Positions 10,917 to 34,770 of a DNA stretch of 64,000 nucleotides are shown here, piece by piece (positions within the stretch are counted from its first letter, which is position 1; each line of letters begins with the position of its first letter). Position numbers and translations under genes: made by a program. Source of the DNA: Eledone cirrhosa (taxonomy: Eukaryota); contig OZ024743.1 of the NCBI GenBank assembly GCA_964016885.1, forward strand, positions 152,582,001-152,646,000. Direction: 5' to 3'. The notes below the pieces were generated by a model. It did no database searches and had not been told where the DNA came from. It saw only the letters and a list, made by a program, of their open reading frames with translations.

Positions 10917-10973
<57 letters not shown>
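10917..10973. repeat. (TAA)n microsatellite at a tail-to-tail Dong-A/Tx1-b junction
   Basis: Direct reading. Confidence 0.97.
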
Positions 10974-10975
<2 letters not shown>

Positions 10976-11957
10976 TTTCATTTATTAGCCACAAGGGCCG
11001 ACATGTAGGGGACAATACAAAGACAGGGACAGTGGGGGTTTACAATAAGGTCGAGTAAAAGTGCACAATGGCAAGACTAATTTAACAATGAAAATATAAA
11101 ATATAAAATAAACTATGCAAAATATAACAAAATAAATTCCCCGATAGGGGGTGGACGACCCTGGGGTGATTCGGGTACCCCACCAATCCTGAACCACCCT
11201 GCGCTTCTAGGGCACCCAGGAGAGCACCCCTCTCCTCAAGTTAGCCAGCCTATAGGCGCATGGTCAGAGTAGGGCCATTCACACGAGCCATTCTCGCCAC
11301 ATTCACCCACCTTTTAGCAAATGTACTGGGGGGCAGCACTTCTCTCTCCACCCTCACCCGCCTTTCCAGGTGAAACTTGAAGAAGTTGATGAGGGATTGG
11401 CCGAAGAGAAAAGTGTCTGTCTTTAGTCCTTTCAACCTGGTCCACCATATAATCTCTTTCGCAACTGCCACCAGACAGAGGAAAATGTCCTGCTCTTCCT
11501 GACCTAAGGAAGGTGGCGGCTCGATCTTTACTATGGACTCGGCCGATAACTGGATTCGTTCCACACGCGACAGTAGCTGTTCGACATAACTCCACAAGTC
11601 AGTAATGCACGGACATAGGACAAGTGCGTGCAGAACGGTTTCGTCGTTCTGTGCGCATCTTGGGCAGGTCCGTCTGACAGCACTTCCGTGCCTGTAGAGT
11701 TTATCCCGAACCGGCAGTGCCCCCCGGTAGCACTGCCAAGCGAGGGATTTCTGGAAATTGTCCATCGTCCCCGGCTCAAAAGTCCTCCGGTACAGACTGG
11801 TCAGTTCGACTTCGTCGAGGTCCAAAGCTTCTCCGAGTGCGTCATCGCACTTGCCCACCACTAATCCTCTATAGAACTCGAGAGTGGAAGTTCCACTGAT
11901 CGCATTGCCCGCTTGGTAGAGGGCAGTGAGTGCCTGGCAACATTCCAGGTGCCAGTC
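10974..11957 (-). mobile_element. Tx1 family b, 5'-truncated 3' fragment flanked by (ATT)n
   Basis: ORF2 C-terminus (WQCYRGALPVRDKL, CPRC) clearly diverged from family a, with a distinct 3' UTR ending ggcccttgtggctaataaatgaaatc(att)n. Confidence 0.9.
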
Positions 11958-12217
11958 TAATAATAATAATAATAATGCTTTCTTTATTAACCACAAGGGT
12001 TTACACAAAGTAAGACATTAAGGACAACACAGGGCGGTACAAATGGGCATTTCTGCGTGTAAAAAAACAGAGGATGTAACAAAAAAAAGAAACAATGAAA
12101 AATTCCCCAATAAGGGGGAGACTTCCGAGGGACATTCGTCGAGAAAGCCCATTAAAAAAAGTCACGGTGATACTGACCACCAGGGCAAGTGCCTTCTCCC
12201 AGTTTTCCACTTTCAAT

Positions 12218-14901
12218 TTACAGGCACATAATCAGAGTAGGTCCATTCACACGGGCCATTCTTGCTTCTCTCACCCATCTTTCAACAAAATGCTGGGAAG
12301 AGAGCACTTCCCTCTCTACCCTGATTTTCCTTTTCAAATGAAATTTTGAAAAATTAATCAGGGCATCACCGAAGAGGTAAGTGCTCGTCTTCAGCCCTTT
12401 CAAACACGTCCACCATACTATCTCTTTCGCCATGGCCACCAGACAGATAAAAACTGCCAGCAATTCCCGGCTAAAGGAGGAGGGCGGGTAAATCCTCATG
12501 ATGGACTCAGCTGATAGCCGGATCCGTCCTACACGCGACAGCAGGTGTTCGACATAAACCCACAAGTCAGCAATTCTCGGACACTGGATGAGTGCGTGCG
12601 GGACCGTTTCGTCGCCCTGCGCGCATCTCGGACATGCCCGGCTGACGGCACCTCCATGCCTGTAGAGTTTATCCCGCACTTTCAAAGCTCCTCGGTAGCA
12701 CTGCCAGGCCGGGGATTTCTGGAAGTTGTCCATAGGCCTCGGCCCGAAAGTTCTTTCGAAGAGATTGGCTAGTTGATTTTCTTTGACGCCTAGAGTTTCC
12801 CCAAGTACGTCGTCACTTTTCCCCTCCACTAATCCTCTATAGAACGCCAAGGTGGAGTTTCCACCGTTCACATTGCCCGGCGGGTCGAGGGCTGTGAGCG
12901 CCTGAAGACATTCCAGTCTCCAAGCGCTCCCTCTAGGTCTTCGCTTGACTCAGGACTGCAGTTCCGTCAAGGAGACGAGCTGGGGAAAAACGCGTCTAGC
13001 AAACGGCGACCACACCTGATTACCGTCGAGGAAGAGGTGGAGATGTCGTAGCCTGAGCGCGTGTCTGCGGATCATCAGCCACGGCATGCCCAGCACTCCA
13101 CGTAGCGGGTGTTGACAGCAGATGGACTGCCTGACAATCGGAGTGCGTCCCTTCCACAAAAAGCGAAACAACAAACGCTCCAACGCAGTCAGGCGAGGCT
13201 TAGGACAAGGCACGACGGTCAGGAGGTAGTAGATGTCGGATGAAATGTACGCATTCGCCACCTCCGCTCGACCTTTCAGGGATAGCTTCCTCTCGGCCCA
13301 TTTCTGGGTGAGAGAAGCCACACTGCTCGTCACCTCGTCCCAGTTTTTGTCCGTCTGGAGGTCCGGACCGAAACAGACCCCTAGCAATTTAACCGGTCCA
13401 TCCGTCCATCGCCCGACGACGCTGTTGGACGGCATGGACCTACCTCTCCAGGTGCCGAGCTACAGGCCCACCGACTTTTCCTGGTTGATCATTGCTCCTA
13501 TCACCGCTTCGTATTCTCTTAGTGTAGTGCCGATCGCCTCGATACCGATCGCCTCACTACGGTAACATCGTCCGCATATGCTGAGACGGATCTTCCGCAT
13601 CCTAGTTCGCGCGGGACTCCCCTCAACGTCTCCAGTTTGTGCAGTAATGGCTCGAGAGTCAATACGTACAAGAGGGACAAGAGGGGACATCCTTGGCAGA
13701 CCGAGCGCATGATGTTGAACGGTTCCGGAAGGTGACCGTTCACTCTCACCATAGAGCAAATGTCGCTTTGCATGGCAGCGATCCAGCCTCTGAAGACGAG
13801 CCCAAAGCCAGCCGCCCTCAGGACTGCCGCTAGATAACGATGTTCAACCCTATCGAAAGCTTTCGACTGAGCTAAATTGATCAAGGACCCACCCGTGACA
13901 GGTTCCCTAGCTACCTTCTCCACGATGTATCGCATGAGGTGGAGGTTGTCGTGGATGGATCTGTCGGGAATGGCGCATGTCTGCGCCTCTCCAACCACAC
14001 CACCAACGACAAGCGCCAACCTCTTTGCTAGCACCTTGGCCAAAATTTTGAACCCTGTGTTTAGCAGAGTTATGGGCCTGGAATTCTCTATGTTACCCCT
14101 TTGTTCGGATCCTTTCTCAGCAGCGCCACTGCTCCTCGGCTCACAGAGCTGGGAATTCTCCCGTTCTGTTTGGAGTTGAAGTAAACGTCCGCCAAGAGGC
14201 CTCCGTACAAGTCTGGCATCTGTACGTAAAGTTCGCAGGGCAGACTATCCAAACCAGGCGATTTACCCCTTGTGCAGCCAGTCATTGCCTCCCGTACTTC
14301 AGCAGCTGTTATCGGCTTTTCGAAACACTCCGCCTCAGTGGCCGAGAGCCGCGGCAGTCCGTCGAGGTAGACACTAAAGTCCATCCCTTGGTCCGGCCCG
14401 CAACTGCCACTGAACAGTTGAGCGAAGTGTTGCTGAAAAGCTTCACACATTTTCCCGGGATTGAGTAGCCTGCTCCGATCGTGGTCCACCAAAGACCGAA
14501 TCATGACTTTGTTGTCACGACCCGCCTCCGCCACTCGGGCCCATTGAACCGCTTTCGTCCCCTCGTGTCTGAGAACCCCGTCAGGGCATAGACGGCCACT
14601 AGCCTGAAAGCTTGCCCTTCTCCGCTGGTCACGTCCAGCACCACCAACTTACCTTCTGGGTCTAGGAAGATGGCGCGTATGGCGAGAAGCACAGCAACTC
14701 CTCCCCCGATCCAGGATGGCTGGGAGATACATACACGTAGCCGCCGAAGATCAGTGCGAAGGCTCATGCTTCGGAGATTCTGGTCTCGCTGATGGCCACT
14801 ACATCTATGTTTAGTGACCTGAGGTCGTTGAGCAGGTGGCCCTGTTTCCATGACGACCCCAGGCCACGCACATTTATGGTGCCTATTCTGAGTGAGCTCA
14901 T
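12218..14901 (-). pseudogene. Tx1 ORF2 (partial APE plus RT), disrupted
   Basis: Fragments SPGLD, SKAFDRVEH, AYADD, CPRC across several frames. Confidence 0.9.
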
Positions 14902-14936
14902 GTTGAAAAGGAGTGGAAAAAGATGGGAAATACCAC

Positions 14937-16896
14937 TTACCTCACTTCTCGTAGAGTAAGGATGGTTTCTCCATCCTTCTCACTGCTTGTGGTCTCTTCC
15001 GGAAAGATGTCCTTATAAATTCTCCTGGAGAGTGTTTGTCGGAAGTCTCCGATGTCCTTCGGGAATTTTTGTTTTAGTGTCGTGTATGTTTTCTGTGTGA
15101 TGCGAGTGATTTGTATGTGTGGAGGTGGTGTGAATTTTTGGGGTGTTGTGTAGTCTTTTTCCGTGATGCTTGTGTTGTGTTAGATGTAGTATAATAATTG
15201 GTTGTTGTTCAAATTTAATGCTGTGTAGTGTGTATCGCTTTGGTTGTTTTGTTTTGTTTGCGTTCGTTATGGGTTTGTTTCTGTTTCGCTTTTTGGTGAT
15301 TTTTGTGGTGTTGGTGATGGTGGTTGTGGGGTTAACGATGATGATGGTGCTGGTATTTGTGGTGATGGGGCTGGTGATGCTGGTGTGGGTGGTGGCATAG
15401 CTGTCTTAACATTTTTGTTTGTTTGCTTATTTGTTTCCCCCTGCATTTTATTTTTGGAGGGCGAAGGAAGAGGATTTTTTCTTTTTGTTTTTTTTTTTCT
15501 TTTTCATTTTTCCTGATACCATTTCCCACTCCCCCTCATCGTCAGAATCTGTCTCCAGTGGGGATAGTTCGGGGAGTGGATAATCCTCCACAGGCGTTGG
15601 TTTTGGTTGTGGCGTGTTGGATGGTGGATGCGCTGGTGCTAATTCTGGGGCGGTGGGTGGTAGTGGTGTTGGTTTTGCTACTGTTGCTGGGGTTGTTGCT
15701 GCTACAGTTACTTCTGTTGTTGCTGCTACAGTTGTTGCTGCCATTTCTGCTGCTGGTGGTGTTGATGGTTAAGTCACTGGGGTGGGTAGGAGAGGTGGCC
15801 TCAACTTTTTAGCCTGAGGGCAAAACCCTTTAGGTGGCTTCCTTCGCCACAAACGATACACCTAGGCCTTCTACCCTCAACGATTACGGTGAGGTGGCCG
15901 CCGTCATTGAGGTCTATCACCTCTGGAATTTCCTCAATGTTATTTTTGGTCCGCTTGGATCAGGAGCTCCATACCAGATCCGGACCAGTTCTCCTGCTAT
16001 TCTTTTGTCCCCTAATTATTTTTGTGTTGGCCTCAATGCCAGCGAGGACGGCAGCCATTAGCCAGGGAATTTCGATGGCCGGCGGAACGTGGGTCACCCT
16101 GATCTTCACGAGTCTCTGACCACAATAGCTTGGAACGAGTGTGAACTCGTCGCTTCTTAATGGGGCCATGGAGTGCTCTCTGCCTTCCTGTGGGATTCCA
16201 AAGAACACGTCCACGGTTCCATATTTCTGCCCACGTCTGATGTGGTTTTTTTTTGCCCACACATGTCCCAAAGCTTTTTTGTATCTGGGACTCAGATGTC
16301 CGTTCCACTCTGCGTGATTTTGTGTTTATCGTCCGATATGACACGGTGCATAGGCGCCGATGCCCCATTTTATTAGATGGTGGGGTGAGGCTGACCCTGT
16401 ACCCATCTTTTTTACCATTCTCTTGGCTTCATTTAATTCATTCTGGCTTACCTCAATTGTTTCGCTTTTCTTGGCTGCTTTGGCAAACTACACATTTTGT
16501 TTTACGCTGGTGTCGATGTTGTTGTTGTTATTCTCATTGTTGTTTTTGTTACTGTGGTTGTTATTGTTATTTTTAGTTTCAGTTGTGGTGGCGGTGTCAG
16601 TGGTGTTCGGCGTGGAAGAGTTGATTCTGGGTGAATTCATTTCGATATCACGAGATAACAATTTATTTTTTTTTGTTTCTGTTGTTGCTGTGGTGGTGCT
16701 GGTGGTGGCGGCGGCTTTAACACCTGCAGTTATTGGTAATGGCGGGAAATGAATGTCTGCATGTGACAAATTTAAATTATTGCCACTGCTTATATTGTTA
16801 GTGTTGGCAACCGTAGTAATGTTTACAATGGTGGTGTTGGTGTGAGGTGTTAATTTGTGAGGAAGGCTGTCAGCTTTGTGTGGCTGAGCCGTCCAT
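14937..16896 (-). pseudogene. Tx1 ORF1 (gag-like, CCHC knuckle, Thr/Pro-rich and Lys-rich tracts), frameshifted
   Basis: Homologous to 26563-28475. Contains CIVCGEGSHLKG.CP and DDEGEWEMVSGKMKKKKK. Confidence 0.85.
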
Positions 16897-17109
16897 GTTT
16901 TTTTTCAAAGAAAGTTTTTGTTTGATGTTTATAAAAGTTAAAATTTTGGGCTCAAGGCCCCACATTTTTTAGTGTCCTTTCAGAAAGCAATATATGTGAA
17001 CTTATAAACACTTAACAACAAACATTTTCCATAACTGGCAATTTGAAACAACTGAAAACAACAAACCTTTGCGGAGCTCACGATAATACGATTTCCTATG
17101 TAGGCCACC

Positions 17110-17160
<51 letters not shown>
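17110..17160. repeat. (TAA)n microsatellite between tandem Tx1 copies
   Basis: Direct reading. Confidence 0.97.
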
Positions 17161-17161
<1 letters not shown>

Positions 17162-17840
17162 GTTTCTTTATTAGCCACAAAGGCTAACATGAAGAAAAAC
17201 ATACAGACGGCACAGAACGGTACGGGACGATACAAAGTGGGTTTTGGTCATGTAAAAAAGGTTATAACAAGAAGATAGAAATATAAAACAAATTCAAACA
17301 ACAAAAATTCCCCAATAGGGGGTAAACTTCCGAGGGTCACTCGTGGCAAAAACTACAGAAAAGACCACGGCCACCCTGACCACCAGGGTAAACACCCTCT
17401 CTCAGTTTTTCACTCCCCAGTCTACAGGCGCATACTCAGCGCGGGCCCGTTCACTCGGACCAGACTCGCCACTTTCACCCACCTTTCAACAAACTTATTA
17501 GAAGACTGCACTTGTCTCTCCACCCTGATTTTCCTCTTCAAGTGAAATTTGAAAAAGTTAATCAGAGATTGGCCGAAGAGGAAAGTGTACGTCTTCAATC
17601 CTTTCAACCTTGTCCACCATACAATCTCTTTCGCCATGGCCACCAGGCAGATGAAAACTGCCTGCCCTTTGTCCTCCTTAAAGGAGGACGGCGGGGCTAT
17701 CTGCACAATGCACTCAGTCGATAACCGGATCCGTCCTACACGTGACAGAAAATGTTCGACATAGCTCCACAAGTCAGCAATGCTCTGACACTGAACGAGT
17801 GCGTACACAGTGGTTTCGTCGCTCTGTGCGCATCTCGGAC
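17161..17840 (-). mobile_element. Tx1 family c, 3' fragment
   Basis: ORF2 C-terminus (KEIVWWTRLKGLK, ERWV..RVNGP). The 3' end is ttagcctttgtggctaataaagaaacc(att)n. Confidence 0.9.
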
Positions 17841-17842
17841 AA

Positions 17843-17934
17843 TTGTTTCTACTTTTGACACAAAGCCAGCAATTATCCTAGTGCATTACTGGTACTTTAT
17901 TTTAGCGACCCTGTAAGAATATAAGGCAAAGTTA
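17843..17934 (-). mobile_element. SINE 3' half
   Basis: Reverse complement of the SINE body and tail. Confidence 0.85.
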
Positions 17935-17963
17935 TAATAATAATAATAGAAATTATTATTATT

Positions 17964-18263
17964 GGTGGATTGGCAGTATCGGTAAAGGGTCGGACACCAT
18001 GCTTTGCAGCATAGAGTTACGTTCCTTTACGGTTTGAGTTCAAATTACGCTGAGGTTAACTTTGCCTTTCATCCTTATGTGGTCGATAAAATAAAGTACC
18101 AGTAATGCACTGGAATAATTGCTGGCCTTGTGCCAAAAGTAGAAACAACTATTATTATTATTCGCCGAGGTTAACTTTACCTTTCATCCTTACGGGGTCG
18201 TTAAAATAAAGTACCAGTAATACACTGGGATAATTGCTGGCCTTGTGCCAAAAGTAGAAACAA
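17964..18263 (+). mobile_element. Two tandem SINEs (near-full 17964-18148; 5'-truncated 18163-18263) separated by (ATT)n
   Basis: A box tggcagtatcggta, B box gagttcaaat, tail ggccttgtgccaaaagtagaaacaa. Confidence 0.9.
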
Positions 18264-18999
18264 TTATTATTATCAATGTTACTCTAACACACTTGCTTGC
18301 TCCCTACGTTTTCAATGCTTGTCCCTGTCTTAACCATAAATTCAACATGGTCTGCCCAGGGAATTTGAAATGGCTGACGTTAAGATTGCAGAGATAAGAT
18401 GGTTGATGTGACATGAGATCTTGTGAGGTCAAGAGGAGGTGTAAATATGGCAGGTATCATTTGGTTATTCAAGGGAAGTAACTCCTGCATTTGTATGTTT
18501 TTAAGTTTGTACGTATGACAAAATTATAAATATACAAAATTATAAACATATACATATCTGTTATGAATTATACTATGTTAAAGCTACAGTTAATTAATCC
18601 TAGTCAGTCAAGCTTACACTATATGCAAATGCGCATCACCAACTTATCCTTCATATGTAAAATAATATTTAATCTATAGCTTATTTTTGAGTGAAGATCA
18701 CTGATAATGGATAAAAATCTAGAAACAAATGTCTGGCATTCGCACATGAGTACTGTGACGGATGACATGATCACAGCTTAAAACATTCATAGCAAGACTC
18801 ATATATGTTTATTATACATAAACATATAGTATATGCCTTTATATACACCTCTATTAGTATATTTAGATGTCTATTTATACACATGTTACACACACACACT
18901 CACACACACACAACCCCTCCCCTCTATATATGTATGTATGTATGTTCCAGCAAAGGGCAGATGAACTCAGCAGAGTCATTGGTCATCCAAACAGTACTT

Positions 19000-19470
19000 T
19001 TTTTTTTACCTGGGAGTGAAAGGTCCCTAGTTGTGGTCAAAACACCTTTCTAAGAGAGGGAAATTGAAAGAAAAACCTGCAGCTTCGGAAGCATCCGATG
19101 ATGTTGACCAGTTTTCTCCTTTTTGGATAGTGTTTTCAATGCTCAGAGAGTGGGATTGGTCGAGTGCAAGGCTTTTCCCCATATATAAAACCTTCAAAGC
19201 ACAGGCATTGTTTGTTCAGGATATGTTACAGCTTCATGTGGCTGGCCGTAGCCTAAAAGTGCACCATTTTCTGTAATCTGACAAGCAATTGCAATACTCT
19301 TAACAGAGTTGGCAGCGATCATGTATGTAAGGTCCAGTAACTCCTGGGGTGGGTGGGGGGTGGGGGTGGGGGGAGTGTCGTAGGGGCACCACATTAACCT
19401 ATGGCATTTCTAGGGTATTTTTTAAAAACCTGGTGGAGCCCAATCCTCTCCAGGTCTGAATACAGAATTT
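19000..19470 (-). pseudogene. Heavily decayed non-LTR RT fragment (possibly Ingi/Vingi/I-like)
   Basis: Piecewise minus-strand translation resembles RT domains 1-3 (IALL..K..RLRP..GF..GKS..SIEN..QK..KTG). Many frameshifts. Confidence 0.3.
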
Positions 19471-19499
19471 CTTCCAGAGAATGATAGAGAGTGATATGT

Positions 19500-19541
<42 letters not shown>

Positions 19542-19570
19542 GTTTAACGTCCATTTTCCACGCTAGTATG
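19500..19570 (-). mobile_element. RTE-type 3' tail remnant with (GAT)n
   Basis: Minus strand reads ctagcgtggaaaatggacgttaaacgatgatgatg, as in the RTE ends at 32440 and 55530. Confidence 0.75.
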
Positions 19571-19597
19571 TGTGTATATATATCTATATATTTGTGA

Positions 19598-19715
19598 AAG
19601 TGCTTGGCTGATAGTTAGAGAACTGGATTCACAATCGTGAGCTTGTGAGTTAGATTCCCAGACCGGGTGATGTGTTATGTCCTTGAGCAAGACACTTTAT
19701 TTCACATTGCTCCTC
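19598..19715 (+). mobile_element. Second tRNA-derived SINE family with a CORE-like domain, partial
   Basis: A/B-box-like head plus tgtccttgagcaagacactttatttcac. Same family as 56493 and 62517. Confidence 0.7.
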
Positions 19716-20641
19716 CTACCTGGATTTGTGACTAATAGAAACATTGTTTCTTCAGTTCGACTTGACAAAAGTCGATTGACTGTCAATATATATACATATT
19801 AGTGAGCTTTTATGTGATAGTGTGATTGTGCATGAAAAGATTACTACTATCTATATTTTTGTTGTTAGGTAGAGAGAAGGTTATTAACATGTAAAATGTT
19901 AACATCATCTATGCTATAGCTAGAAGACACAAATACAGAAATGGAGACATGTTAACTCCAATAACAAATGGAGTTTCTTAACTCAAGTCATTGTAAGAGA
20001 AATAACTATAGCTTGATTAAATTATATATTTGACTGCATTGGTCCAGAAACTAATACAGAATAGACACTTTAGAATCACATGTCAGTTTAGGAATATGGG
20101 ACTGCATCATTTCATAAGAAATCTTAATTCAGCTTTAAAATGTGACGGTCTTGTCACTTTCAATGAGATCTCTTCTTTCTTTTTCTTTTAATGACATACT
20201 TCTTTCTTATTTTTTTCTGTTTCCTTCTTTTTCTCATTCATTCTTTCTCTTTTTCCCTCATTTTTCTCTGCCTCACATATAGTCTACGAAGCGTGTATTG
20301 CCAGTAATTTAATTCTTTAACAAGATGTAGTGTTACAATAATCTCTTGCTGTGCAATGTGTCAAAGTTTGTAAGTTAATGATTACTCTTCAGTAATTGTA
20401 AAAATAGATAAAAACCTCCAAAAATTTAATCTTAAATCTCATTTTGATGAAACAAATACAGGGTGAGTTATTTTAAATTGGCTGTAGTTTCTTTCTGAAG
20501 CTTAACCCTATATAGTGTGTTAGTTTTGGTTTAGAATTGCTGAATTCTGAGAATTTTAAACAATGTCACGTGCTTGCCTGTTTGAAAATTATTATTATTA
20601 TTATTTTTATTATTATATTATATTGTATTGTATTATTATTA

Positions 20642-21420
20642 TTGCCATTTCATTTATCTTGCTTTATGTTCATCCGAGTTATCACCAAGTCACAACCAGT
20701 GACCCAAGTGACAACAAGGTCTGCTATGTTCAAGAAAATTGCACACACACATGTATCTTTAGGTGTTTAGACTTGTGATATACTTATATTGACATAATCT
20801 TGCTTAGTATATGGGTAGATGCCATTAGTACTATCTTTTGTATTTCTTCTGTACGTGGGTTTCCTGGGATTTAGGATAAGTGATCATTAAGCCCCTTAGA
20901 TATCATTCCTAGAGCGCCTACAACCACTGGTATTGTTTTAGTTCTCAACTTCGCCATTTTTCCAATCTCTATATTTGCCAATTTTTCAAACGTTTTATAG
21001 ATACATTCTTGTCTATAGGAACAGTCATGTCAATTAGCAGGCATACCCTCTTCTTAAAGTCCTTCAGTATTATATCAGATTTATTTGCATCTATTTTTTG
21101 GTCTGTTTGAATGATAAAATGCCACAAAATTGAAATATGACCTTTTCAAGTATGGGATGTTCCCACCAATTCTTTTGGTAGGGTAGGTCAAAATGCTTAC
21201 ACATCATCCAATGTATGTATTGTTATGCTCTGTCGTGCCTGTTAAGGTATGGATTTGGCACTATAAGACTGCACATTGAAATTATATGATCAACAGTCTC
21301 TGGTAGTTGTTTTAGACATGGCACAATGGTTTGCATCCATTTTTTAATATGTTGGCTTGATAATTTTTTGTTGGCAGACACTGTTCTTGTGCTGATATAA
21401 TCAGACCTTCAATCTCCGAA
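20642..21420 (-). mobile_element. Dong/R4 family A, older 5'-truncated copy
   Basis: Reverse complement of the Dong-A 3' region and UTR, preceded on + by degenerate (ATT)n. Confidence 0.88.
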
Positions 21421-21429
21421 TTTTTACTC

Positions 21430-21508
21430 AATTATATTGTAAACCCCCACTGTTCATGTCTTTGTATTGTGCCCTACATGTCGGCCCTTGTGACCAATAA
21501 ATGAAATC
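21430..21508 (+). mobile_element. Tx1 family b, extreme 3' tail only
   Basis: gtctttgtattgtgccctacatgtcggcccttgtgaccaataaatgaaatc matches the reverse complement of 10974-11050. Confidence 0.85.
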
Positions 21509-21516
21509 ATTATTAT

Positions 21517-21694
21517 TGGATTGGCAGTATCAGTAGAGGGTCGGACGCCTTGCTTTCCAGCATAGTTAAGTCCCTTTACGATCTGAGTTCAAATCCCGCT
21601 GAGGTTGACTTTGCCTTTCATCCTTGCGGGGTCGATGAAATAAAGTACCAGTAATGCACTGGGTAATTGCTGGCCTTGTGCCTAAAATAGAAAC
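21517..21694 (+). mobile_element. tRNA-derived SINE with (ATT)n tail
   Basis: A box, B box, body and tail all present, followed by (ATT)n at 21695-21737. Confidence 0.92.
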
Positions 21695-21695
21695 A

Positions 21696-21737
<42 letters not shown>

Positions 21738-21749
21738 GCCATTGTTATT

Positions 21750-24700
21750 CCTTGAATCTCAGTCATTGATGTTGGTTAACTGGAAAGTCCGTTGGATTGA
21801 ATATCAAGCCACTACCTGCAGCCTCAGATATTCAGGACGTATCGGAGGGTTCTTGCTGTTCCAAGTAAGCATGCCTTTTGAAGCGTTCCAAAAAGCGTGA
21901 AGGGGCCGATTTTCTTTAACCATCCCTGGAAACCTTTGGAGATAGTCCCCAGTGCGCCTATGACAATCGGGATCACTTTGACTTCATGGCAGTTCCAAAT
22001 CCTTTTCACCTCCCACTTTAGGTCCTGGTATCGGTTAATTTTCTCCCTCTCCTTCTCTTGCACTCTCGTGTCGAACGGGCAGGCCACATCCACAATCAGG
22101 CACGATCTTTTTTCTTTGTCCACAACCACCAGGTCAGGTCTATTGTGTTCCAGTTTTTTGTCCGTCTGTATCCTAAAATCCCACAGCACCTTCACCTGAC
22201 TGTTCTCCATCACCGCCTCTGGCCTATGCTCATACCATTTCTCAGAATGTGGTAGATTGTTTACTTTGCACAGGTGCCAGTGGATCACCCTGCCCATCAC
22301 ATCGTGTCTCCAGCCCTTATAGTGGGTCTGGGCTAGGTGTTTACACTCGGACACAATGTGAGCCACAGTCTCCTCTCTCTCTCCACAGATCCTGCACAGT
22401 GGGCTAGCCTCCTCCTTGTAGATATGGTGCTTCAACCACTTCGTTTTGAGGGCCTGCTCCTGCGCAGCCATTAGCATTCCTTCTGTAGCCTTTTTGAGGT
22501 CTCCTCTTCTCAACCAGTTCCATGTCTGTGGATCTCTAAATTCAGTTTTCTCAAAGAAGGTACTATGAAGGGATTTTCCCTTAAGGCTGCTCTTCCTCCT
22601 TGATGTTATTTCCTCCTTGGGCATCCCCTGGCCTACTGTCCCCTCCTTCAGTACAGTTCTGAGCATTGGCTCCTTACTATAGGTCACGTATTTGTATAGG
22701 TTGTTTTTCTCCATCTGAACACAGTCCTCTATGCTGATAAGACCTCTTCCACCCTCAGATCTCCTTAGGTAGAGTCTATCGACATCACTCCTCTTGTGGA
22801 ACATGTTGTAGATAGTCAATAGCTTCCTAGTCTTCCTATCCATTTCTTTTTGTTCAGCAACATTCCATCTCAGAATTCCCGCACTGTACCTAATAATAGA
22901 CACAGCTCGGGAATTTACTGCGCTTATGGCATTTCTGCTGTTCAGATGTGACTTCAATACGCTCCTTACTCTCCGAATGTATTCAGTTCTTAACAATTCC
23001 TTCATTTTTTTGTTCTTTATGCCATCAGCCTCCAGAACGCCCAAATACTTGTATCCTTCCTCAGAGTCAATTTCCTTTATCATCCCACCTGTTGGTATCT
23101 GGATCCCGTTACTTCTGCTCAACCTACCCCTCTTCATCACAATGACTCCACATTTACCAATACCAAACTGCATACATATATCACTGCTGAAAATACGGAC
23201 AGTGTCAACAAGCACATCCAACTCCTTCTCACTTTTCCCGAAGAGCTTAAGATCGTCCATGAAGAGGAGGTGATTGATGGTAAGCTCTCCCCTTCCCAAC
23301 TTGTATCCTGCTCTCACTTTTCGCAGCATAATGGTCAAGGGCATCAGGGTAAGGACAAACAACAGAGGGGACAGGCTATCTCCCTGGAAGATACCTCTCT
23401 TGATCTTCACGCTTCCCAAGGATACTCCAGTTGATGTCAACTCTGTCTCCCAGGACCCCATACTCCTGCCCAGCAACTGTCTGATGTTATCTGCCACCCT
23501 GAAGATCTCCAGGCTTTTGGTGATCCAGGAATGAGGCACCATGTCAAATGCCTTTCTGTAGTCTATCCATCCCATGGCAAGATCAGTGTGTCTCCTCCTG
23601 CAATTCCCCATTACCATCTTATCAATAAGCAACTGGTCCTTTGTACCACGTGACTTCTTTCGGCATCCTTTCTGTTCGTCCGGTAACAAGTTGTTTGTGT
23701 GGAGGTGATGGTAGATTGCCTCAGACACAATGCTCGTCAACAGTTTCCACATTACGGGCAGACATGTGATAGGTCTATAGTTGGTAACATCATTACCCTT
23801 GATTCGGTCTTTCATTATCAGAACTGTGGTACCTTTTGTCAACCACTCTGGCACCTCACCCGACACCAAGCAGTCATTGAACATGGCCGTCAGCTTCGGG
23901 TGGAGGGATGTTAAATGTTTAATCCAATACCCCTGCACACCATCTGGGCCTGGTGATTTCCAGTTGGTTAGTTTTTTGGCTTGCCCCTTAAGAGTTTCAA
24001 CTGTGATACTCAAATCAGTCTGTTGTTGCGCCTGCTCACCGATCTCCCTCTGTACTGTCTCAATCTACCCTGCCTGGGCATTGTGTCTAACATCCTGCTC
24101 CCATATTCCTCTCCAGAATGTTTTAGCTTGTTCCGCCCCAGGGATCAAGTCGTTGCCTCTTTCTTTCCCCTCAAGCTGTCCAAACAGCATCTTCTGGTTG
24201 TTGTCGAACATGCGGTTCTGTTTATACTGACTGACTCTGTTCTCGTATCGCCTGATTTTGGCACTCTTTGCTACAATGCGTTGCTTCAATTCCTCTATGA
24301 TAATATTTAGCTTTTTACTCCTAGTTTTGTATTTTATTTCCAGTCTATTTTTAGTGCCTATGTTTTTTAGTGTCCCATTCAGTAGTGACTCAAGCTTTCC
24401 TATGTCATTTCTCATTTCCCCGATTTGCCCACTCAGTCGCTTCTTCCACCACGGCTCTGCTCTTTCTTGTCTGTTGTTTCCTCTCGCTTTTATACCAAGT
24501 AGTTTCCTCACCGTATTTGCTGTTGCTTTGAGGATATTGTTGCACTGGTGAAGGCTCCTCGCCTCAAGGTATGGGATGACTTTGTTTACCTTAGCTGTTG
24601 TTTCTTTTAACTTTTTCCTGTCTACAAATCTTAGGTTCATAGGTCTCCCACTATCATTGTTCAATTCATCTACCACTAAATTTAGGATGTCAACCGAATC

Positions 24701-26296
24701 TTGTCCTAGCCCGTCAGCACTCATCTCCTCAGTGGCCGCATCTCTGTTCCAGGTATTATTTATCTCAGTATTCAGATCATTGTCTGCTTCGGGTGGTTCC
24801 TCCGTTCTCAGGACCTCCTCACCTTCATTTCCCACCGGCTCGCTTGTCTGGCATACTACACCCGCCATCTCCAAGCCATTCTCTCTGCTCAGTTCCTCCA
24901 GTTCCAGCTCGCTTATCCACCCATTAGTTCTTATTACCCGAGCCTGCCCGGCCAATTTTTGTTCATCTAATTTAAATAAACCAATCTCGTTCCAGATGTT
25001 ATGCATCCGTCTCCTGTAGCCCCTCTCCTTGGGGTTACTTTTCAGGTAGCATTGCATAACAGTTCTATTCAATTCTTTCGTCCAGTTGGTTCTGGCCCCT
25101 TTCCTTCTTCTTCTTCCTCCAACATCAGCAGTATTTGGTTGACAGTCAGGTTCCTGCTGCTGAGCCAGGGGGCACCTGTTGGGTGAGAGTCTGTCACATG
25201 ACGTTCTAGTCTCCATTTCACCGTTATTCGAACTGTTTATGTTCGATATTTAAACACTCTTATCGAGGATTGGCGAATGTATGTTTACATAGCCATCTGT
25301 GGATCCGCCATCCCACTTGGCCCTTGTGTGGCATTATCACCACGCTGTATACGAACACACATAAACAAACAAACACACGGGCAGAAAGGGCCCCCAAAAT
25401 GAATAAGCATAAGTTTCATTGTAATGTAGTATTCGAATGTCTGACTTAGTTTTTGTTTTTTAAGTTTTACTTTTTCCCCCCTCTTCTCTGTCCGTCCGCC
25501 TGCTTCTCTCTTCATTCTTATTTTCTTTACGTTTTTGGGGTTTCTTTTTTTGTTTTTGTTTTTCTCTGTTTGTTTTTCTCGTTTTTGCTGTTGTTGCTGT
25601 GCTGCTTTGGTTTTGTTGTTTGTTTTTTCTTTTTTCTTTTGAGTCTATCTATATATTTTGATGCCTTCCTCTTTGTTAGTAGTAGGAATTCTATAATGTG
25701 GAAGTAGCAGCCAGCAGGGAGAAGTGGGAGACTGGCGGCGGTAGCGATACTGAGACAGTGGTGGTGGTGATGTCGATACCGAGGCAGTGGTGGCGGTGAT
25801 GCGACCGTATTACTGTAGTGATGGTGCTGTAGCGGTGGCAGCAGTGAAGGAGTCAAGGGGTGGTGGCGGCGGTGATGGGATAGTGGTGGTAATGATGGCC
25901 GTAGTGAGCGGTGGCGGTGAAGGTGAAAATGTCGTTATCTGGCTGTTGTGTTTAGTGTACACAGATGATGGGGTGGGTGGTGTATCTAGTTTCTGGTGTT
26001 GGTGAGTTTAGCTGTCCTATATAGTGTAGCCAGAGGAGAGGGGGGGGGGTTCTTCTTCTTCCATTTATAGCCATTTTTTTTTGGGATATACAGTGTACAA
26101 TACAAAGTTGAATATTTGAATATTTGAGCCTTATAACAATATATTTTGGGTCCGAATGTTTTGGGGCTCAAGCCGGGTGCTTTACGTAGCATTTGTACTA
26201 AGAGTTGTTATTTCACAAATGATTTAAATATGTTAAAAATTCAAAACTTACGGGAGCGATTTCATGACCTCCGTCACCTCGTGCGTCTTCTTCCCT

Positions 26297-26298
<2 letters not shown>
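21750..26298 (-). mobile_element. Dong/R4 family B, apparently full length (~4.55 kb)
   Basis: Bounded by (AAT)n on both sides on the minus strand. A single long ORF, an ~1.08-kb leader and a short 3' UTR. The 5' boundary is inferred from the microsatellite. Confidence 0.88.
21824..25216 (-). pseudogene. Dong/R4-B polyprotein (~1130 codons; RT, CCHC, RLE) with one in-frame premature TAG
   Basis: The 383-aa and 729-aa ORFs are in the same frame, split by TAG at 24065-24067 where the paralog has TGG (48103-48105). Motifs KSPGPDG, FMDD, CRIC..H..C, RHD, RPDLVVVD..IVDVACP. Confidence 0.93.

Positions 26299-26352
<54 letters not shown>
26299..26352. repeat. (ATT)18 microsatellite separating head-to-head Dong-B and Tx1-a
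   Basis: Direct reading. Confidence 0.97.
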
Positions 26353-26562
26353 GGCGACCTACGTAGTAAATCGTATCATCGTGAGCTCCGCAAAGGTTTG
26401 TTATTTTCAGTTATTTAAAATTGCCATTTATGGAAAATTTTTATTGTTAACTGTATACAAGTGCACATACATTGTTATCTGAAAAGGACACCCAAAAGGA
26501 TTGGGGCCTTGTGCCCAAAATTTAAACTTTTATGATTATCAAAAAATTTCTTTGAAAAAACC

Positions 26563-28475
26563 ATGGCTGATTCACCTCTGCACCAAGCAACTGAGAGCCT
26601 TCCTCACAAACTAACACCTCACACGGACACCACCATTGTAAATATTACTACGTTTGCCAACACTAAAAATATAAGCAGTAGCAATATTTTTAATTTGTCT
26701 CAGGCAGACATTCATTTCCCGCCATTACCAATGACTGCAGGTGTTAAAGTCGCCACCCCCACCAGCACCACAGCGACAACAGAAACAATAGAAAAAAATA
26801 AATTAACTCGTGATATCGAGATGAATTCAACCAAAATGAACTCTTCCACACCGAACACCACTGACGCCACCACCACCACAACTGAAACTAAAATTAATAA
26901 CAAAAATAACGATAACAACAACAGCAACAATGAAATTAAGAAAACCATTCTGAGTTTTGCCAGAGTAGCAAAACAGTGCGAAGCATTTCAGGTAATTCAG
27001 GAGGAATTAGAAGAAGCCAAACAATTGGTAAAGAAAGATGGGTACAGGGTCAGCCTCACCGCCCCACCTAATAAAATGGAGCATCGGCGCCTATGCACCG
27101 TGTCTTATCGAACAATTAATATAAAATCGCGCCGAGTGGAACGGGCATCCGAGTCCCAAATCCCAAAAGCTTTGGGTCATGTGTGGGCAAAAAAACCCCA
27201 CATCAGACGTGGCCAGAAGTATGGAACCGTGGACGTGTTCTTTGAAACACCACAGGAGGCTAGAGAACACTCCATGGCCCCATTAAGAAGTGACGACTTC
27301 ACACTCGTCCCCAGCTATTGTGGCCAGAGACTCGTAAAGATCAGGGTCACCCACGTTCCACCGGCCATCGAAATTCCCTGGCTAATAGCTGCCGTCCTCG
27401 CCGGCATCGAAGCCAACACCAAGATAATCGAAATAGCGAAAGAAAAGCAAGAGAACTGGTCCGGATCTGGGATGAAGCTCCTGATCCAAGCGGACCAAAA
27501 AAGCATTGAGGAGATCCCAGAGGTAATAGACCTCACTGACGGCAGCCACCTCACCGTAATTGTCGAGGGCAGAAGGCCTAGGTGTGTCGTTTGTGGTGAA
27601 GGCTAAGGTTGAGACCACCTCTCCTACCCACCCCAGTGACTCAACCATCAACACCACCAGCAGCAGAGATGGCAGCAACAACTGTAGCAGCAACAACAGA
27701 TGCAACTGTAACAGCAACAACCCCAGCAACAGTAGCAAAACCAACACCACCACCACCCAATGCGCCAGAACAAGCACCAGCGCCTACACCATCCACCACG
27801 CCACAACCAAAACTAACGCCTGTGGAGGATTTTCCACTCCCCGGCCTATCACAACTGGAGACAGATTGTGACGATGAGGGGGAGTGGGAAATGGTATCAG
27901 GAAAAATGAAAAAGAAAAAAAAAAACAAAAAGAAAAAATCCTCTTCCTTCGCCCTCCAAAAATAAAATGCAGGGGGAAACAAATAAGCAAACAAACAAAA
28001 ATGTTAAGACAGCTATGCCACCACCCACACCAGCATCACCAGCCCCATCACCACAAATACCAACACCATCATCATCATTAACCCCACAACCACCATCACC
28101 AACACCACAAAAATCACCAAAAAGCGAAACAGAAACAAACCCATAACGAACGCAAACAAAACAAAACAACCAAAGCGATACACACTACACAGCATTAAAT
28201 TTGAACAACAACCAATTATTATACTACATCCAACACAACACCAGCATCACAGAAAAGACTACACAACAACCAAAAAGTTCACACCACCTCCACACATACA
28301 AATCACTCGCATCACACAGAAAACGTACATGACACTAAAACAAAAATTCCCCAAAGACATCGGAGACTTCCGACAAGCACTCTCCAGGAGGATTTATAAG
28401 GACATCCTTCCTGAGGAGGCCACAAGCAGTGAAAAGGATGGAGAAACCGTCCTTCCTCTACGAGAAGTAAGGTAA
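26563..28475 (+). pseudogene. Tx1 ORF1, frameshifted
   Basis: ATG at 26563 opens 347 aa ending RPRCVVCGEG (knuckle partly deleted), then Thr/Pro-rich and Lys-rich segments ending ..ETVLPLREVR*. Confidence 0.87.
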
Positions 28476-28509
28476 GTGGTCTTTCCCATCTTTTCCACTC
28501 CATTTCCAC

Positions 28510-31203
28510 ATGACCTCACTCAGAATAGGCAGCATAAATGCGCGTGGCTTGGGGTCGTCATGAAAGCAGAGCCACCTGCTCAACGACCTCAGGTCACTAA
28601 ACATAGATGTAGTGGCCATCAGAGAGACCAGAATCTCCGAAGCACGGGCCTACGCACCGATCTTCAGCGGCTACGATGTGTACGCATCTCCCAGCCGTCC
28701 GGGATAGGGGGGCGGATTTGCTGTGCTTTTTCGGAGAGGTTTGGATCTCGCCATACGGGCCATCTTCCTGGACCCAGAAGGTTGGTAGTGCTGGACGTGA
28801 CTAGCGGAGACGGGCAAGCTTTCAGGCTAGTGGCCGTCTATGCCCCGACAGGAGCAGGGCGCCCTGATTTCTTCCGGCGTCTGGAGACCTTTCTTCGAAC
28901 GTCCCGCTCTTTAGTGTTATTGGACGACTGGAACGGGATCTTAGATGCACGCTGGGACTGTGTGGGATTAGCGGATAGGGGAGGAGGGTGCAAGAGTATC
29001 ACCAACCTTCTCAGGCGTTTTGAACTGTCTGACAGGTACCGATTGGATTTCCCGAATGTGCCAATGTGGACTTGGACAAATCGCATAGGGTCATCCAGAT
29101 CATATCTAAATAGAGTATTTTGTAGGGAAATAGATAGGTCTAGCATAGGCTGTCCACAATTCAAGATAGTCAGCTTCACGGACCACAAATTCGTGATCTG
29201 TGTGCTTGACTTAGATAGGCTTCATAGACGAGGACCCGGCTACTGGAAGCTAAACGCGTCCTTACCAGCAGGCAAGGCCTACAGAGACCGGATTAGCGAA
29301 CTAGTTAAGCGGGCGTTGACGGGTGGTATGCTCTGAAAAGAGAAATTAGAATAGAGTCCATTAGGTTTAGTAAGGCTTTAGCAATAGAGAAAAATAGAGC
29401 AGAGGGAGAATTAGTTAGAAAATTAGACGAGGCGTTTAGCAAAGGCATCGCGACCGACGTACTTGCGGCGAAACTGGACCTTAACCAATTCTTCAATGCA
29501 AAGCACGAAGGCTGCGTTGTCAGAGCTAGGGTGCGTGCTCTCAGACACGGGGGGACGAAAGCCGTTCAATGGCCCGAGTGGCGGAGGCGCGTCGTGGCAA
29601 CAAAGCCACGATCCGGTCTTTGGTGGACCACGACGGGCGCATGATACTCGATCCCGGACACAGCTGATTGGGGGCAGCGGCTGGCCGGATCGAGGGAAGG
29701 ACTTTAGTGATTACCTCAATGGCCTGCCGCGGCTCTTTGCCACTGAGGCGGAGTGTTGCGAAAAGCCGATAACAGCCGCTGAAGTACGGGAGGCAATGAC
29801 TGGCTGCACAAGGGGTAAATCGCCTGATTTGGATGGTCTGCCCTATGAACTTTACGTACAGATGCCAGACTTGATCGGGGGCCTCTTGGCAGACGTCTAC
29901 TGAAATGCAACAGAACGGGAGAATTCCCAGCTCTGTGAGCCGAGGAGCTGTGGCACTGCTGAGAAAGGATCCGAACAAGAGGGATAACATAGGTAATTTC
30001 AGGCCCATAACTCTGCTAAACACAGAGTTCAATATTTTGGCCAAGGTGCTAGCAAAGAGGTAGGCACCATTCCCGACAGATCCATCCACGACAACCTCCA
30101 CCTCATGCGATACATGATAGAGAGGGTAGCTAGGGAACCTTGCACGGGTGGGTCCTTGATCAATTTAGATCAATCGAAAGCTTTCGATAGGGTCGACCAT
30201 CGTTACCTAGCGGCAGTCATGAGGGCGGCTGGCTTCGGGCCCCTCTTCAGAGGCTGGATCGCTGCTATGCACAGCGACATCTGCTCTGTGGTGAGAGTGA
30301 ACGGTCACCTTTCGGAACCGTTCAACATCACTGGGCATGCCGTGGCTGATGATGCGCAGACACGCGCTCAGGCTACGACATCTCCACCTCTTCATCGACG
30401 GTGATCAGGTGTGGTCGCCGTTTGCTAGACACGTCTTTCCCCAGCTCGTCTCCTTGACGGAGCTGCAGTCCTGGGTCAAGCGAAAACCAAGAGGGAGCAC
30501 TTGGAGACTGGAATGTCTTCAGGCGCTCACAGCCCTCGACCAATCGGGCAATGTGATCGGTGGAAACTCCACCTTGGCGTTCTATAGAGGATTAGTGGAG
30601 GGGAAGAGCGACGATGTACTTGGAGAAACTCTAGGCGTCGACGAAAATCAACTAGCCAATCTCTTCGGAAGAACTTTTGGGCCGGGGCCTATGGACAACT
30701 TCCAGAAATCCCTGGCCTGGCAGTGCTACAGAGGAGCTTTGCCAGTTCGGGATAAACTCTACAGGCATGGAGGTGCCGTCAGCCGGGCATGTCCGAGATG
30801 CGAGCAGGGCGACGAAACCATCCTGCACGCACTCGTCCAGTGTCCGAGCATTGCTGAGTTGTGGGTTTATGTCGAACACCTGTCACGTGTATCACGGATC
30901 CAGCTATCAGCTGAGTCCATCATGAGGATTGCCCCGCCCTCTTCCTTTAGCCGGGAAGGGCAGGCAGTTTTTATCTGTCTGGTGGCCATGGTGAAAGAGA
31001 TAGTATGGTGGACACGTTTGAAAGGGCTGAAGACGAGCACTTACCTCTTCGGTGATGCCCTGATTAACTTTTTCAAATTTCATTTGAAAAGGAAAATCAG
31101 GGTAGAGAGGGAAGTGCTCTCTTCCCAGCATTTTGTTGAAAGATGGGTGAGAGAAGCAAGTATGGCCCGAGTGAATGGGCCTACTCTGAGTATGTGTCTG
31201 TAA
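28510..31203 (+). pseudogene. Tx1 ORF2 (APE plus partial RT plus C-terminal domain), disrupted
   Basis: MTSLRIGSINARG, VAVYAP, TDHK, PGYWKLN, DQSKAFDRVDH, CPRC motifs. Confidence 0.92.
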
Positions 31204-31446
31204 ATTAAAGGTGGAAAACTGGGAGAGGGCACTTGCGCTGGTGGTCAGGGCCACTGTGGTCTCTTAATGGGCTTTCTCCACAAATGTCCCTCGGAAGTCT
31301 CCCCCCTATTGGGGAATTTTTCTTTGTTATTTTATTTCATCCTCTGTTTTTTTTACATGCAGAAATGCCCATTTGTACCGTCCTGTATTGTCCTGTACTG
31401 TCCTTAATGTCTACTTTATGTAAACCCTTGTGGTTAATAAAGAAAA

Positions 31447-31483
<37 letters not shown>

Positions 31484-31536
31484 CTAGAAATCATTATTAT
31501 TGTTACTATTATTATTATTATTATTTCCATTATTAC

Positions 31537-32645
31537 TTTACCAAAGACAGCTCTGTGCGCCTGGAGCATGAGCAGTGTAGCTTTTGCTGATGTTGTTTCT
31601 ATTGCATTGATACTACTTTTCGGAATATGTGTGCAATAACTAGTAGAGCTATATTTTGTATGCTGTATATATTTCTAAGTCCTGGGGTTTTGACTATGTA
31701 GGGCATTGTGTGCAGAGGATCTGTGCAGACTGGAGAGGAACGAAGCTTGCATGCTCCGTTGGATGTGTAATAGTAATATACGTGAACGGCAAAGCATAAA
31801 TGAACTAAGTGAGAAATATGGAATAAGAGGGATCAGATGCTGTTTACTCGAGAGAAGACTACGTTGGTATGGTCACGCACGTGATGTGCATGAAAGACGA
31901 CAGCTGTATAAAAAAATGCAGGGCGATCAAAATAGATGGAAGATACGGAGTAGGCAGACCCAGAAAAACCTGGGACAATTTGATAAATTCTGACCTTACA
32001 CACTGACACCTCTCCAAGACAATGTCACTGGAACGAGATCTTTGGTGCTACGCAGTAATACAGAAGACCCACCATGCCTAAGTACAAAGTGAAACCTACA
32101 GTCACTAGGCACATCCTAACCAAAAATACACCCCCACCCCACTACACCTACCCCCCACCCCCATATACACCACCCCTTTCTCTGTAAAGTTATGTTGGTG
32201 CCACAACATCCAGTCCTAAATAAATGAGGTCGTGTAGGTGTCACAACAAAAAAGACACACTCTCCACGCTGTAATGTGGCCGTGTAGGTAACACGGTAAA
32301 AACCTCCCAGTCCACACTGTAAACGTGGTTGGTGTTAGGAAGGGCATCCAGCCGTAGAAAACCCTCCAGACAGTCCTATACGAGCAAGACAACCAATCCT
32401 GCCTCATGTGGGACAATTCCCGTCTAAACCCATGCTAGCTTGGAAGATAGACGTTAAATGATGATGATGATGATGATGATTTGTCTGTGTGTTTTTTTAT
32501 AATTCCTAGGGCACCTATTATTATAGGCATATGGTTTTCATTTTCCACATTCGAAATATTTCCATCTCTATATTTGGAAAGTTTCTTTATTTCCTTGGAA
32601 TATATATATTGTCGTCTGTGGAGATAGATACATCTATTAGAAGGT
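31537..32645 (-). mobile_element. Dong/R4 family C 3' fragment, split by an RTE insertion
   Basis: 31537-31700 and 32481-32645 join seamlessly (acacagacaa|tacatagtcaaaacccc) and match 58960-59290. Confidence 0.8.
31701..32480 (+). mobile_element. RTE-clade LINE, 5'-truncated 3' fragment with (GAT)n tail
   Basis: MLRWMC..RRLRWYGH and GRPRK.W motifs. Close to 44760-45547. Confidence 0.9.
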
Positions 32646-32667
32646 ATTTATTATTATTAAAATGTCA

Positions 32668-32984
32668 ATCTGAGTTCAAATCCCGTCGAGGTTAACTTTG
32701 CCTTTCACGCAGTCAATAAAATAAAGTACCAGTCATGCACTGGAGTCGATTTAATCGACTCTCCCCTCCTCCAAAATTGCTGGCCTTGTGCCTAAATAAG
32801 AAACCATTATTGGCAGTATCGGTAGAGGGTCGGATGCCATGCTTTCCATCATAGTTACGTCCCTTTACGATCTGAGTTCAAATCCCGCCGAGGTTGACTT
32901 TGCCTTTCATCATTTCGGGGTCGATAAAATAAAGTACCAGTAATGCACTGGGTAATTGCTGGCCTTGTGCCTAAAGTAGAAACA
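32668..32984 (+). mobile_element. Two tandem SINEs (long-subfamily 3' part 32668-32806; short subfamily 32811-32984)
   Basis: B boxes, shared body, tails ggccttgtgcctaaataagaaacc and ggccttgtgcctaaagtagaaac, each followed by att repeats. Confidence 0.9.
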
Positions 32985-33005
32985 ATTATTATTATTATTA
33001 TTATT

Positions 33006-34740: not shown

Positions 34741-34770
<30 letters not shown>

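Follow-up and report, generated by a model that had tools for sequence, protein, structure and literature searches.

(ATT)n as a probable, orientation-specific target of a Tx1-like retrotransposon lineage in one 64-kb window of Eledone cirrhosa

When a retrotransposon is flanked by the same microsatellite on both sides, is the repeat a tail that the element brings along, or the target into which it inserts? The question is raised by a 64,000-nucleotide stretch of the Eledone cirrhosa genome (assembly GCA_964016885.1, contig OZ024743.1, positions 152,582,001 to 152,646,000; hereafter the window, whose own numbering we use), in which copies of a Tx1-like long interspersed element (LINE) with apurinic-endonuclease-like (APE) and reverse transcriptase (RT) domains lie between (ATT)n arrays. 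An earlier note on this DNA had proposed, from three copies (a1, a2 and b), that the repeat is the target and not only a tail. On the evidence of this one window, orientation-specific targeting of (ATT)n by a lineage of the L1/Tx1 group is real, and we consider it highly probable that (ATT)n is what the Tx1-like lineage targets. The evidence comes from the junctions of truncated copies, from a strand rule that is obeyed by three kinds of elements, and from target-site duplications of a short interspersed element (SINE) that shares the arrays.

Self-comparison revealed eight pieces of the Tx1-like element in two nests of insertions, five in nest 1 (T0, a3, b, a1 and c, all on the minus strand) and three in nest 2 (e, a2 and d, on the plus strand); besides the three copies of the earlier note there are c and four pieces (T0, a3, e and d) that it did not name as such, and BLAST found no further copy elsewhere in the 64-kb window. 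Copies a1 (11977-17109) and a2 (26353-31447) have both ends, as the note had said, but neither is intact, since both contain stops, frameshifts and, measured against a3, large deletions: a1, with ORF1 and ORF2 broken, has lost ~710 nt from the endonuclease into the linker, and a2, whose ORF1 encodes a CCHC-like knuckle, ~620 nt of the RT. They start at the same point, the first base being identical and directly past a whole ATT unit. A segmental duplication is ruled out by their identity of 83-91%, their unlike deletions and their unlike neighbours, and a1 and a2 are therefore separate insertions. The 5'-truncated a3 (3443-7402) begins late in ORF1 and has the best-preserved ORF2 (APE, RT and zinc finger) in broken frames, whereas b (10974-11957), also 5'-truncated, represents a second family (68-72% identity to family a) with an open ORF2 end of 235 codons. 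The other pieces are c (17161-17840), a 5'-truncated member of a third family (73-77% to a); T0 (1843-2233), 5'-truncated, with a rearranged and duplicated 3' terminus and then one ATT unit; e (21425-21508), an 84-nt 3' fragment of family b with one ATT unit at its 5' end and three at its 3' end; and d (34806-35760), which is old, carries an internal deletion and lacks the last ~20 nt and the ATT tail. In the 3' region that the pieces have in common, identity with family a is 68-78% for b, c, d and T0.

At the 3' terminus, C is followed by ATT in seven of the eight pieces, with 16, 19, 6, 17, 3 and 11 units and a single one in T0; the phase of C and ATT is constant, and none of the seven termini has poly(A). 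Several arrays are shared between neighbours. (ATT)19 (10917-10973, minus strand) lies between the 3' end of b and that of an opposite-strand Dong-like element, (ATT)6 (11958-11976, minus) lies 3' of a1 and 5' of b, and (ATT)17 (17110-17160, minus) likewise serves c at its 3' end and a1 at its 5' end. In nest 2, (ATT)18 (26299-26352, plus) separates the 5' end of a2 head to head from that of a near full-length Dong-like element, and (ATT)11 (31448-31482), which continues as degenerate repeats to 31525 (plus), separates the 3' end of a2 from that of an old Dong-like fragment. The sense (ATT)n described earlier at both ends of a1, a2 and b was thus confirmed. As proof of targeting these three copies are weaker than the note assumed, because two of their three 5' arrays (those of b and a1) are the tails of a1 and c, and because full-length copies could transcribe an upstream array.

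The sense-ATT run at the 5' junction measures 11 nt in T0, 7 in a3, 19 in b, 51 in a1, 54 in a2 and 3 in both c and e; in d, where a degenerate ATT/GTT array lies within 0-13 nt, it measures 3 nt if the start is set at 34815 and 10 nt if at 34806. Accordingly, at least 6 nt of sense ATT is found within 2 nt of five of the eight 5' junctions, or of six when the first base of d outside the array is taken as its start. The truncated pieces alone reach at least 6 nt in 3/6 cases (4/6 in a lenient count), compared with 1.2% of window positions (P = 3e-5) or with 2.1% when the background is confined to the nests (P = 2e-4), so that the enrichment to be expected at 5'-truncation junctions was found when checked within the window. 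By comparison, none of nine control junctions, taken from RTE-like and tRNA-SINE pieces whose limits were placed by BLAST and by eye, lies at ATT (Fisher P = 0.009). These P values are optimistic, because insertions within two nests are treated as independent. The earlier observation that the (CTT)32, (TG)22 and (TA)17 tracts carry no Tx1 homology also held, although the tracts lie 6-29 kb from a2 and this control has little power.

The orientation of the arrays follows a simple rule. Nest 1 (1-17948) is an unbroken chain of Dong-like elements on the plus strand and Tx1-like and SINE copies on the minus strand, with arrays reading AAT on the plus strand; nest 2 (20588-35760), which includes an RTE fragment inside a Dong remnant, is a chain with Dong-like elements on the minus strand, Tx1-like and SINE copies on the plus strand, and arrays reading ATT on the plus strand. 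All 27 perfect ATT-class arrays of at least 12 nt in the window lie within 40 nt of an end of one of these three kinds of elements. Read on its own sense strand, the repeat is ATT at 10/10 Tx1-like ends (one via a 30-nt SINE fragment) and at 18/20 SINE ends, both exceptions being at the flip point 17934-17963, and TAA at 17/17 Dong-like ends. Pfam detects an RT and no APE in the Dong-like pieces, which, from their C-terminal nuclease motif, we presume to belong to R4/Dong. They provide a positive control, because the known target of Dong is TAA (PMC3812793). Dong-like element A (8623-10916, plus; RT without APE) and element B (21738-26298, minus; near full length, with 394 + 746 codons) have sense (TAA)n at each end. 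The neighbours of the Tx1-like copies vary (Dong-like A, B and C, the SINE, other Tx1-like copies), and therefore the array is their only common factor. That the element targets Dong was ruled out, since its copies adjoin three Dong-like families, whose break points differ, as well as SINEs and other copies of its own kind.

The Dong-like pieces of the window fall into at least three families, and a single in-frame stop separates the two codon stretches of element B. A third nest (47066-53081) is composed of Dong-like and SINE pieces that obey the same strand rule, with no Tx1-like piece. Two Dong-like 5' junctions are without TAA (56816-56835 and 47066), one lying at an (ATG)6 tail and the other at an RTE-related fragment.

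The SINE, ~190 nt long and mapped as 17 pieces between 1609 and 61330, gives the clearest indication that the repeat belongs to the target. Its head has A- and B-box-like motifs of RNA polymerase III type, read by eye; neither Rfam nor ARAGORN made a tRNA call on it. At 14 of the 17 5' ends, at least 6 nt of sense ATT is present within 8 nt, against a background of 2.7%; among these 17 pieces, S5 (21517-21695, plus) lies in nest 2. Two copies on the plus strand have clear target-site duplications: S8 (36592-36778), with the A/B-box-like head and the same 3' hairpin as the LINE, is flanked by 18 nt (36576-36593 and 36779-36796), and the solitary S15 (53725-53913) by 14 nt (53709-53722 and 53914-53927). 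Both duplications open with three ATT units right behind the terminus and continue into other sequence, and because they start with ATT units, the units past the 3' end of the SINE are at least partly target DNA. The 18-nt sequence of S8 occurs at only these two sites in the window and the 14-nt sequence of S15 at three, while among 903 pairs of unrelated array ends 5 match over 9 nt and 11 over 5 nt. S1 has a third possible duplication, of 9 nt. A second, tRNA-headed SINE family (56495-56625, 19590-19715 and 62520-62640; Rfam tRNA at 56501-56558) is not associated with ATT arrays.

These data bear on an account that needs no targeting, in which RT jumps from one RNA template to another at its (AUU)n end, copies pile up passively in a tolerant region and Dong-like elements invade the resulting tails. 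In its favor, b, a1 and c are arranged head to tail, and when the Dong-like pieces are taken out both nests become head-to-tail, same-strand Tx1-like/SINE chains, so the head-to-head arrays may be split tails; likewise, 5' arrays can be the tails of neighbours. It also accommodates c, whose 5' end meets a SINE terminus with a single ATT unit right behind it, and this junction restricts the earlier statement that three families behave alike to the 3' end, where c has 17 units. However, the account requires repeated jumps between families that are 57-78% alike and unequally decayed, and it does not explain the true duplications starting in ATT at S8 and at the solitary S15. We therefore regard it as very improbable. 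A tail that is hit again still counts as a target, and template jumping is the only escape from that conclusion.

Beyond these chains, further observations weigh against targeting of the repeat. Besides c, e has just one ATT unit at its 5' end, d has no ATT tail, and a3 has an additional 6-nt run in the wrong orientation at its 5' junction, which makes the orientation there ambiguous. A non-trivial target-site duplication accompanies none of the eight LINE pieces and only two, possibly three, of the 17 SINE pieces (14/17 show none), and none of the eight Tx1-like pieces is intact. All evidence comes from one window, with the Tx1-like pieces in two nests only. As an indirect test of flanks, 152 proteins predicted from related ORF2 ends were inspected for poly-Ile/Leu/Tyr leaders and none was seen, a test with low power because gene callers start at internal Met; and bacterial and archaeal genome contigs, scanned twice for contaminant copies, gave 13 pattern matches the first time, none of them confirmed, and no match the second time. 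Taken together, the claim that the repeat is target and not only tail stands on the truncated 5' junctions, the fixed orientation, the controls and the SINE duplications.

The LINE and the SINE resemble each other at the 3' end. In a2 the conserved terminus (31421-31447, plus) consists of a 4-6 bp stem with a 5-nt loop (YTTGT) and an AATAAA-containing spacer, followed by ATT without poly(A); the hairpin is separated from ATT by 12-13 nt in the Tx1-like copies. The SINE ends in the same hairpin at the same spacing, with a similarity of only ~25 nt and a stem of 3-4 bp. Among the LINE termini, 79% of stem cells pair and two of six pairs change on both sides, a score equalled in 3 of 500 shuffles, and when ten SINE ends are included three pairs are 96% paired, one of which turns from C-G to G-C between the two elements (0/500 shuffles). 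Moreover, SINE ends align to LINE ends at a mean of 21.8 vs. 10.6 to Dong or RTE ends, and one ungapped pattern (two mismatches at most) hits 17 sites, namely five LINE and 12 SINE termini and nothing else, where 0.03 are expected, although it misses b and e. The hairpin is present in seven of eight minimum-energy folds. Against this, the covariation controls ignore relatedness, the pattern was built from these very ends, and of the eight folds that of c alone exceeds its shuffles in stability (z = -4.1). Since strand, target and 3' end are all the same, it is probable that this LINE, and not Dong, mobilises the SINE.

Two further features concern the ends of the LINE. A hairpin in its 5' untranslated region (26505-26542, plus, with a counterpart in a1 near 16950-16970, minus) has the same loop and is ~82% similar over 35-38 nt to the 3' end of the SINE; a 5' ribozyme or tRNA head on the LINE was rejected, as Rfam gave no match of note and covariation was limited to one pair, in two sequences. 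In T0 (1843-1900, minus) the 3' terminus is present in two copies with a short inverted terminus copy in between, like a fold-back or restart during priming.

To which group does the element belong? Pfam recognises Exo_endo_phos (6e-08), RVT_1 (2.4e-26) and zf-RVT (2e-09) in ORF2. The APE coding region of a3 (6361-7075, minus) is frameshifted and has one stop, yet retains all catalytic motifs across its broken frames, and 9 residues separate the anchors of its endonuclease hairpin loop. A relative with 72% identity, modelled at a mean pLDDT of 76.8, finds its best match in the L1 endonuclease, followed by APE1 and TRAS1, and P0121, a full-length relative, matches L1 ORF2p at 9e-63 but R2 proteins at 1e-27 or weaker; PDB sequence searches with the endonuclease halves returned nothing useful. 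Because APE, RT and zinc finger occur together, the model is L1-endonuclease-like and the match to L1 ORF2p is far above that to R2, we assign the element, from these comparisons, to the L1 group (L1 plus Tx1) of APE-RT retrotransposons. Strict membership in the Tx1 clade appears likely. Target-specific insertion, frequent in that clade though not universal, is seen here in two nests.

The nearest named ORF2 relatives are from Argonauta hians (58-71% identity), Octopus sinensis (44%) and a cuttlefish (43%), which by themselves would point to a coleoid cephalopod, probably an octopod, as the host. In both of two trees, one of 110 rows (after 18 of one dense cluster were dropped) and one of 41 hand-picked rows, each built without Kibi, Koshi, Keno or Tx1L sequences, a3 groups with one further protein and Argonauta (100/99), and the sister of this clade is a group of ~1150-residue ORF2s at 40-45% identity (100/100). 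The deeper position differs: the 110-row quick tree places the element in a 73-row group that excludes three rows, which we take to be vertebrate-L1-like, while the 41-row tree does not recover that group and leaves a 9-row clade unplaced. The large sister group (P0121-P0155; full-length ORF2s at 40-45% identity, hundreds of them in some clusters) has longer and more varied endonuclease hairpin loops.

ORF1 is a separate upstream frame of 356 codons (26536-27603) with a broken continuation. Tx1-clade ORF1 proteins are of the RNA recognition motif/CCHC type according to PMC5203782. Here ORF1 had no Pfam match and did not resemble, by BLAST, a frog protein with an RBD, and its Atlas neighbours, CCHC and ZCCHC3-RBD clusters at 0.86-0.90, serve as leads only. 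a3 (7171-7402, minus) and d (34806-34908, plus) have nearly the same start point, late in ORF1. The ORF1 end of a3 has diverged from a1 and a2 while its ORF2 is 89-94% identical to theirs, which suggests that ORF1 may have been exchanged between subfamilies.

How might one orientation of (ATT)n be selected? We lean toward a specificity with two steps, an APE nick and the pairing of a primer. In the copies, a conserved hairpin and a 12-13 nt spacer directly precede ATT, never poly(A); the RNA would read through into, or carry, (AUU)n, and its hairpin would be recognised by ORF2p. The APE domain would then nick the (AAT)n strand, plausibly at T/A steps, and the freed (AAT)n primer would pair with the (AUU)n end of the RNA so that reverse transcription begins. 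A second nick 14-18 nt away would duplicate the target, as is seen for the SINE and would hold for the LINE too, whose duplications would be invisible within pure arrays. The arrays that remain on both sides are hit again by the element and the SINE on the same strand and by Dong-like elements on the opposite one, giving nests of 15-18 kb, and the SINE would be mobilised by this element through the common 3' end. The L1 endonuclease nicks at TTTT/AA, and a similar nick at a T/A step would fit the point where the duplications of S8 and S15 start, although primer pairing would give the same phase.

Either step might instead act alone. If the APE domain by itself were specific for (TAA)n/(ATT)n, it would resemble the Tx1L endonuclease, which nicks almost exclusively its own target (PMC1950540), and the endonuclease is said to be the main basis of target choice in this group (PMC4494074); the strict orientation of the Tx1-like ends would agree with this. 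However, the loop has 9 residues as in L1, compared with 11 in Tx1L and TRAS1, an argument softened by the finding that the loop is not the sole determinant (both PMC1950540), and the insertions that lie beside 1-3 units or at the edges of arrays point to a loose recognition. We regard specificity by the endonuclease alone as decidedly unlikely. Conversely, an ordinary, T/A-preferring L1-type endonuclease might be combined with specificity that arises only when (AUU)n RNA ends pair with (AAT)n primers in an array-rich genome. The L1-length loop, the absence of poly(A) from all seven termini and the constant C-ATT phase are in line with this, as are the tail-target overlaps known in RTE, L2, CR1, I factor and R1Bm (PMC6007223, in part). 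But the overlaps in those LINEs comprise one to a few bases and do not confine them to arrays, none of the inspected 5' junctions of the RTE copies of this window, whose tails are (ATG)n, has such an array, and the long 5' arrays at a2, T0 and S15 also speak against it; pairing alone thus seems unlikely to us. The two-step reading that we favor draws on processes reported for other LINEs, in which primer-template pairing and tail-guided site choice were described (PMC6007223, in part).

The window is rich in repeats, and the others include an RTE-like element (39400-45550, plus) that encodes an endonuclease, an RT and a PHD domain, has an (ATG)n tail and is split at ~41384-43790 by a minus-strand DNA-transposon-like remnant (labels by eye). 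RTE-related 3' fragments lie at 31701, 46226, 46447, 46891, 54132 and 56662, and an imperfect palindrome of ~470 nt (61823-62290; 73% self-complementary) resembles a miniature inverted-repeat transposable element.

If the reading is correct, APE-type elements, for which few targets are listed, would gain a new one, and nature would offer a case in which an APE and a restriction-like nuclease, unrelated to each other, use one microsatellite on opposite strands. It would also establish a LINE-SINE pair sharing a hairpin, rare in the L1 group, and name a driver of part of the octopus SINE expansion. Furthermore, whether microsatellite targeting resides in the endonuclease or in RNA-primer pairing, described as not well understood in PMC3812793, would become testable. 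More broadly, though this is less likely than not, an uncatalogued animal lineage of the L1/Tx1 group may have converged on the (TAA)n of Dong from the opposite strand, recognise its RNA by a stringent 3' hairpin in place of poly(A), mobilise an abundant octopus SINE into the arrays that it uses itself, and, together with the SINE and the Dong-like elements, build self-extending nests and perhaps much of the ATT microsatellites of its host.

Within the L1/Tx1 group, targeting of repeats is known, whereas an (ATT)n target may be undescribed. Dewa elements target tRNA arrays and Mutsu elements 5S. Neither a Tx1 with an ATT/TAA target nor an octopus Tx1-SINE pair was found in the open full-text literature, in the parts accessible, Repbase and the target labels in Fig. 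3 of PMC4494074 being outside its scope; it is possible, if on balance doubtful, that Repbase already notes this target. For O. vulgaris, 80 L1-Tx1 and 51 Dong-R4 families are listed, of which 13 and 5, respectively, were recently active (PMC13282606); the accessible part of that annotation contains no target analysis, and its supplement mentions neither "target" nor "microsatellite".

Compared with known systems, the element is not a new kind. Its closest counterparts are Kibi at TC repeats, Koshi at TTC repeats and the crocodilian Tx1 families at TTCC/TTTC (PMC4494074; PMC3812793, in part), which are likewise L1/Tx1-group APE-RT elements in microsatellites. They differ in that their repeats are pyrimidine (T/C) and their hosts vertebrates, while here the repeat is (ATT)n and the host a mollusc; at the (CTT)32 or AG/CT tracts of this window, which are Kibi/Koshi-type targets, no Tx1-like copy was found. 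Dong, of the R4 clade, has the same (TAA)n microsatellite as its target, and the accessible text of PMC3812793 gives TAA for Dong only, including in a snail. However, Dong has a restriction-like C-terminal nuclease and no APE, whereas the element here has an N-terminal APE, and the Dong-like pieces here lie on the strand opposite to the Tx1-like ones at all 17 ends, which would be a convergence on one target. Tx1L of Xenopus is a target-specific APE element as well, with an endonuclease loop of 11 residues rather than 9, and Tx1-Mar is thought to mobilise a SINE (SINEU) with the same target (PMC4494074); the targets of Tx1L and Tx1-Mar are transposons, not a microsatellite, and SINEU has poly(A), with no common tail detected for SINEU-1 in the text available, whereas the SINE here ends in a hairpin common with its LINE. 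Such a conserved 3' hairpin common to LINE and SINE is known from maize LINE1-1_ZM with ZmSINE2/3 and from algal L1-1_CR, and only 3/58 SINE-LINE pairs had L1 tails (PMC3472496). These stringent L1 pairs come from plants and algae, not animals, and microsatellite targeting is not reported for them in the part of that paper available. The L1-group element described here would work like a microsatellite-specific Tx1.

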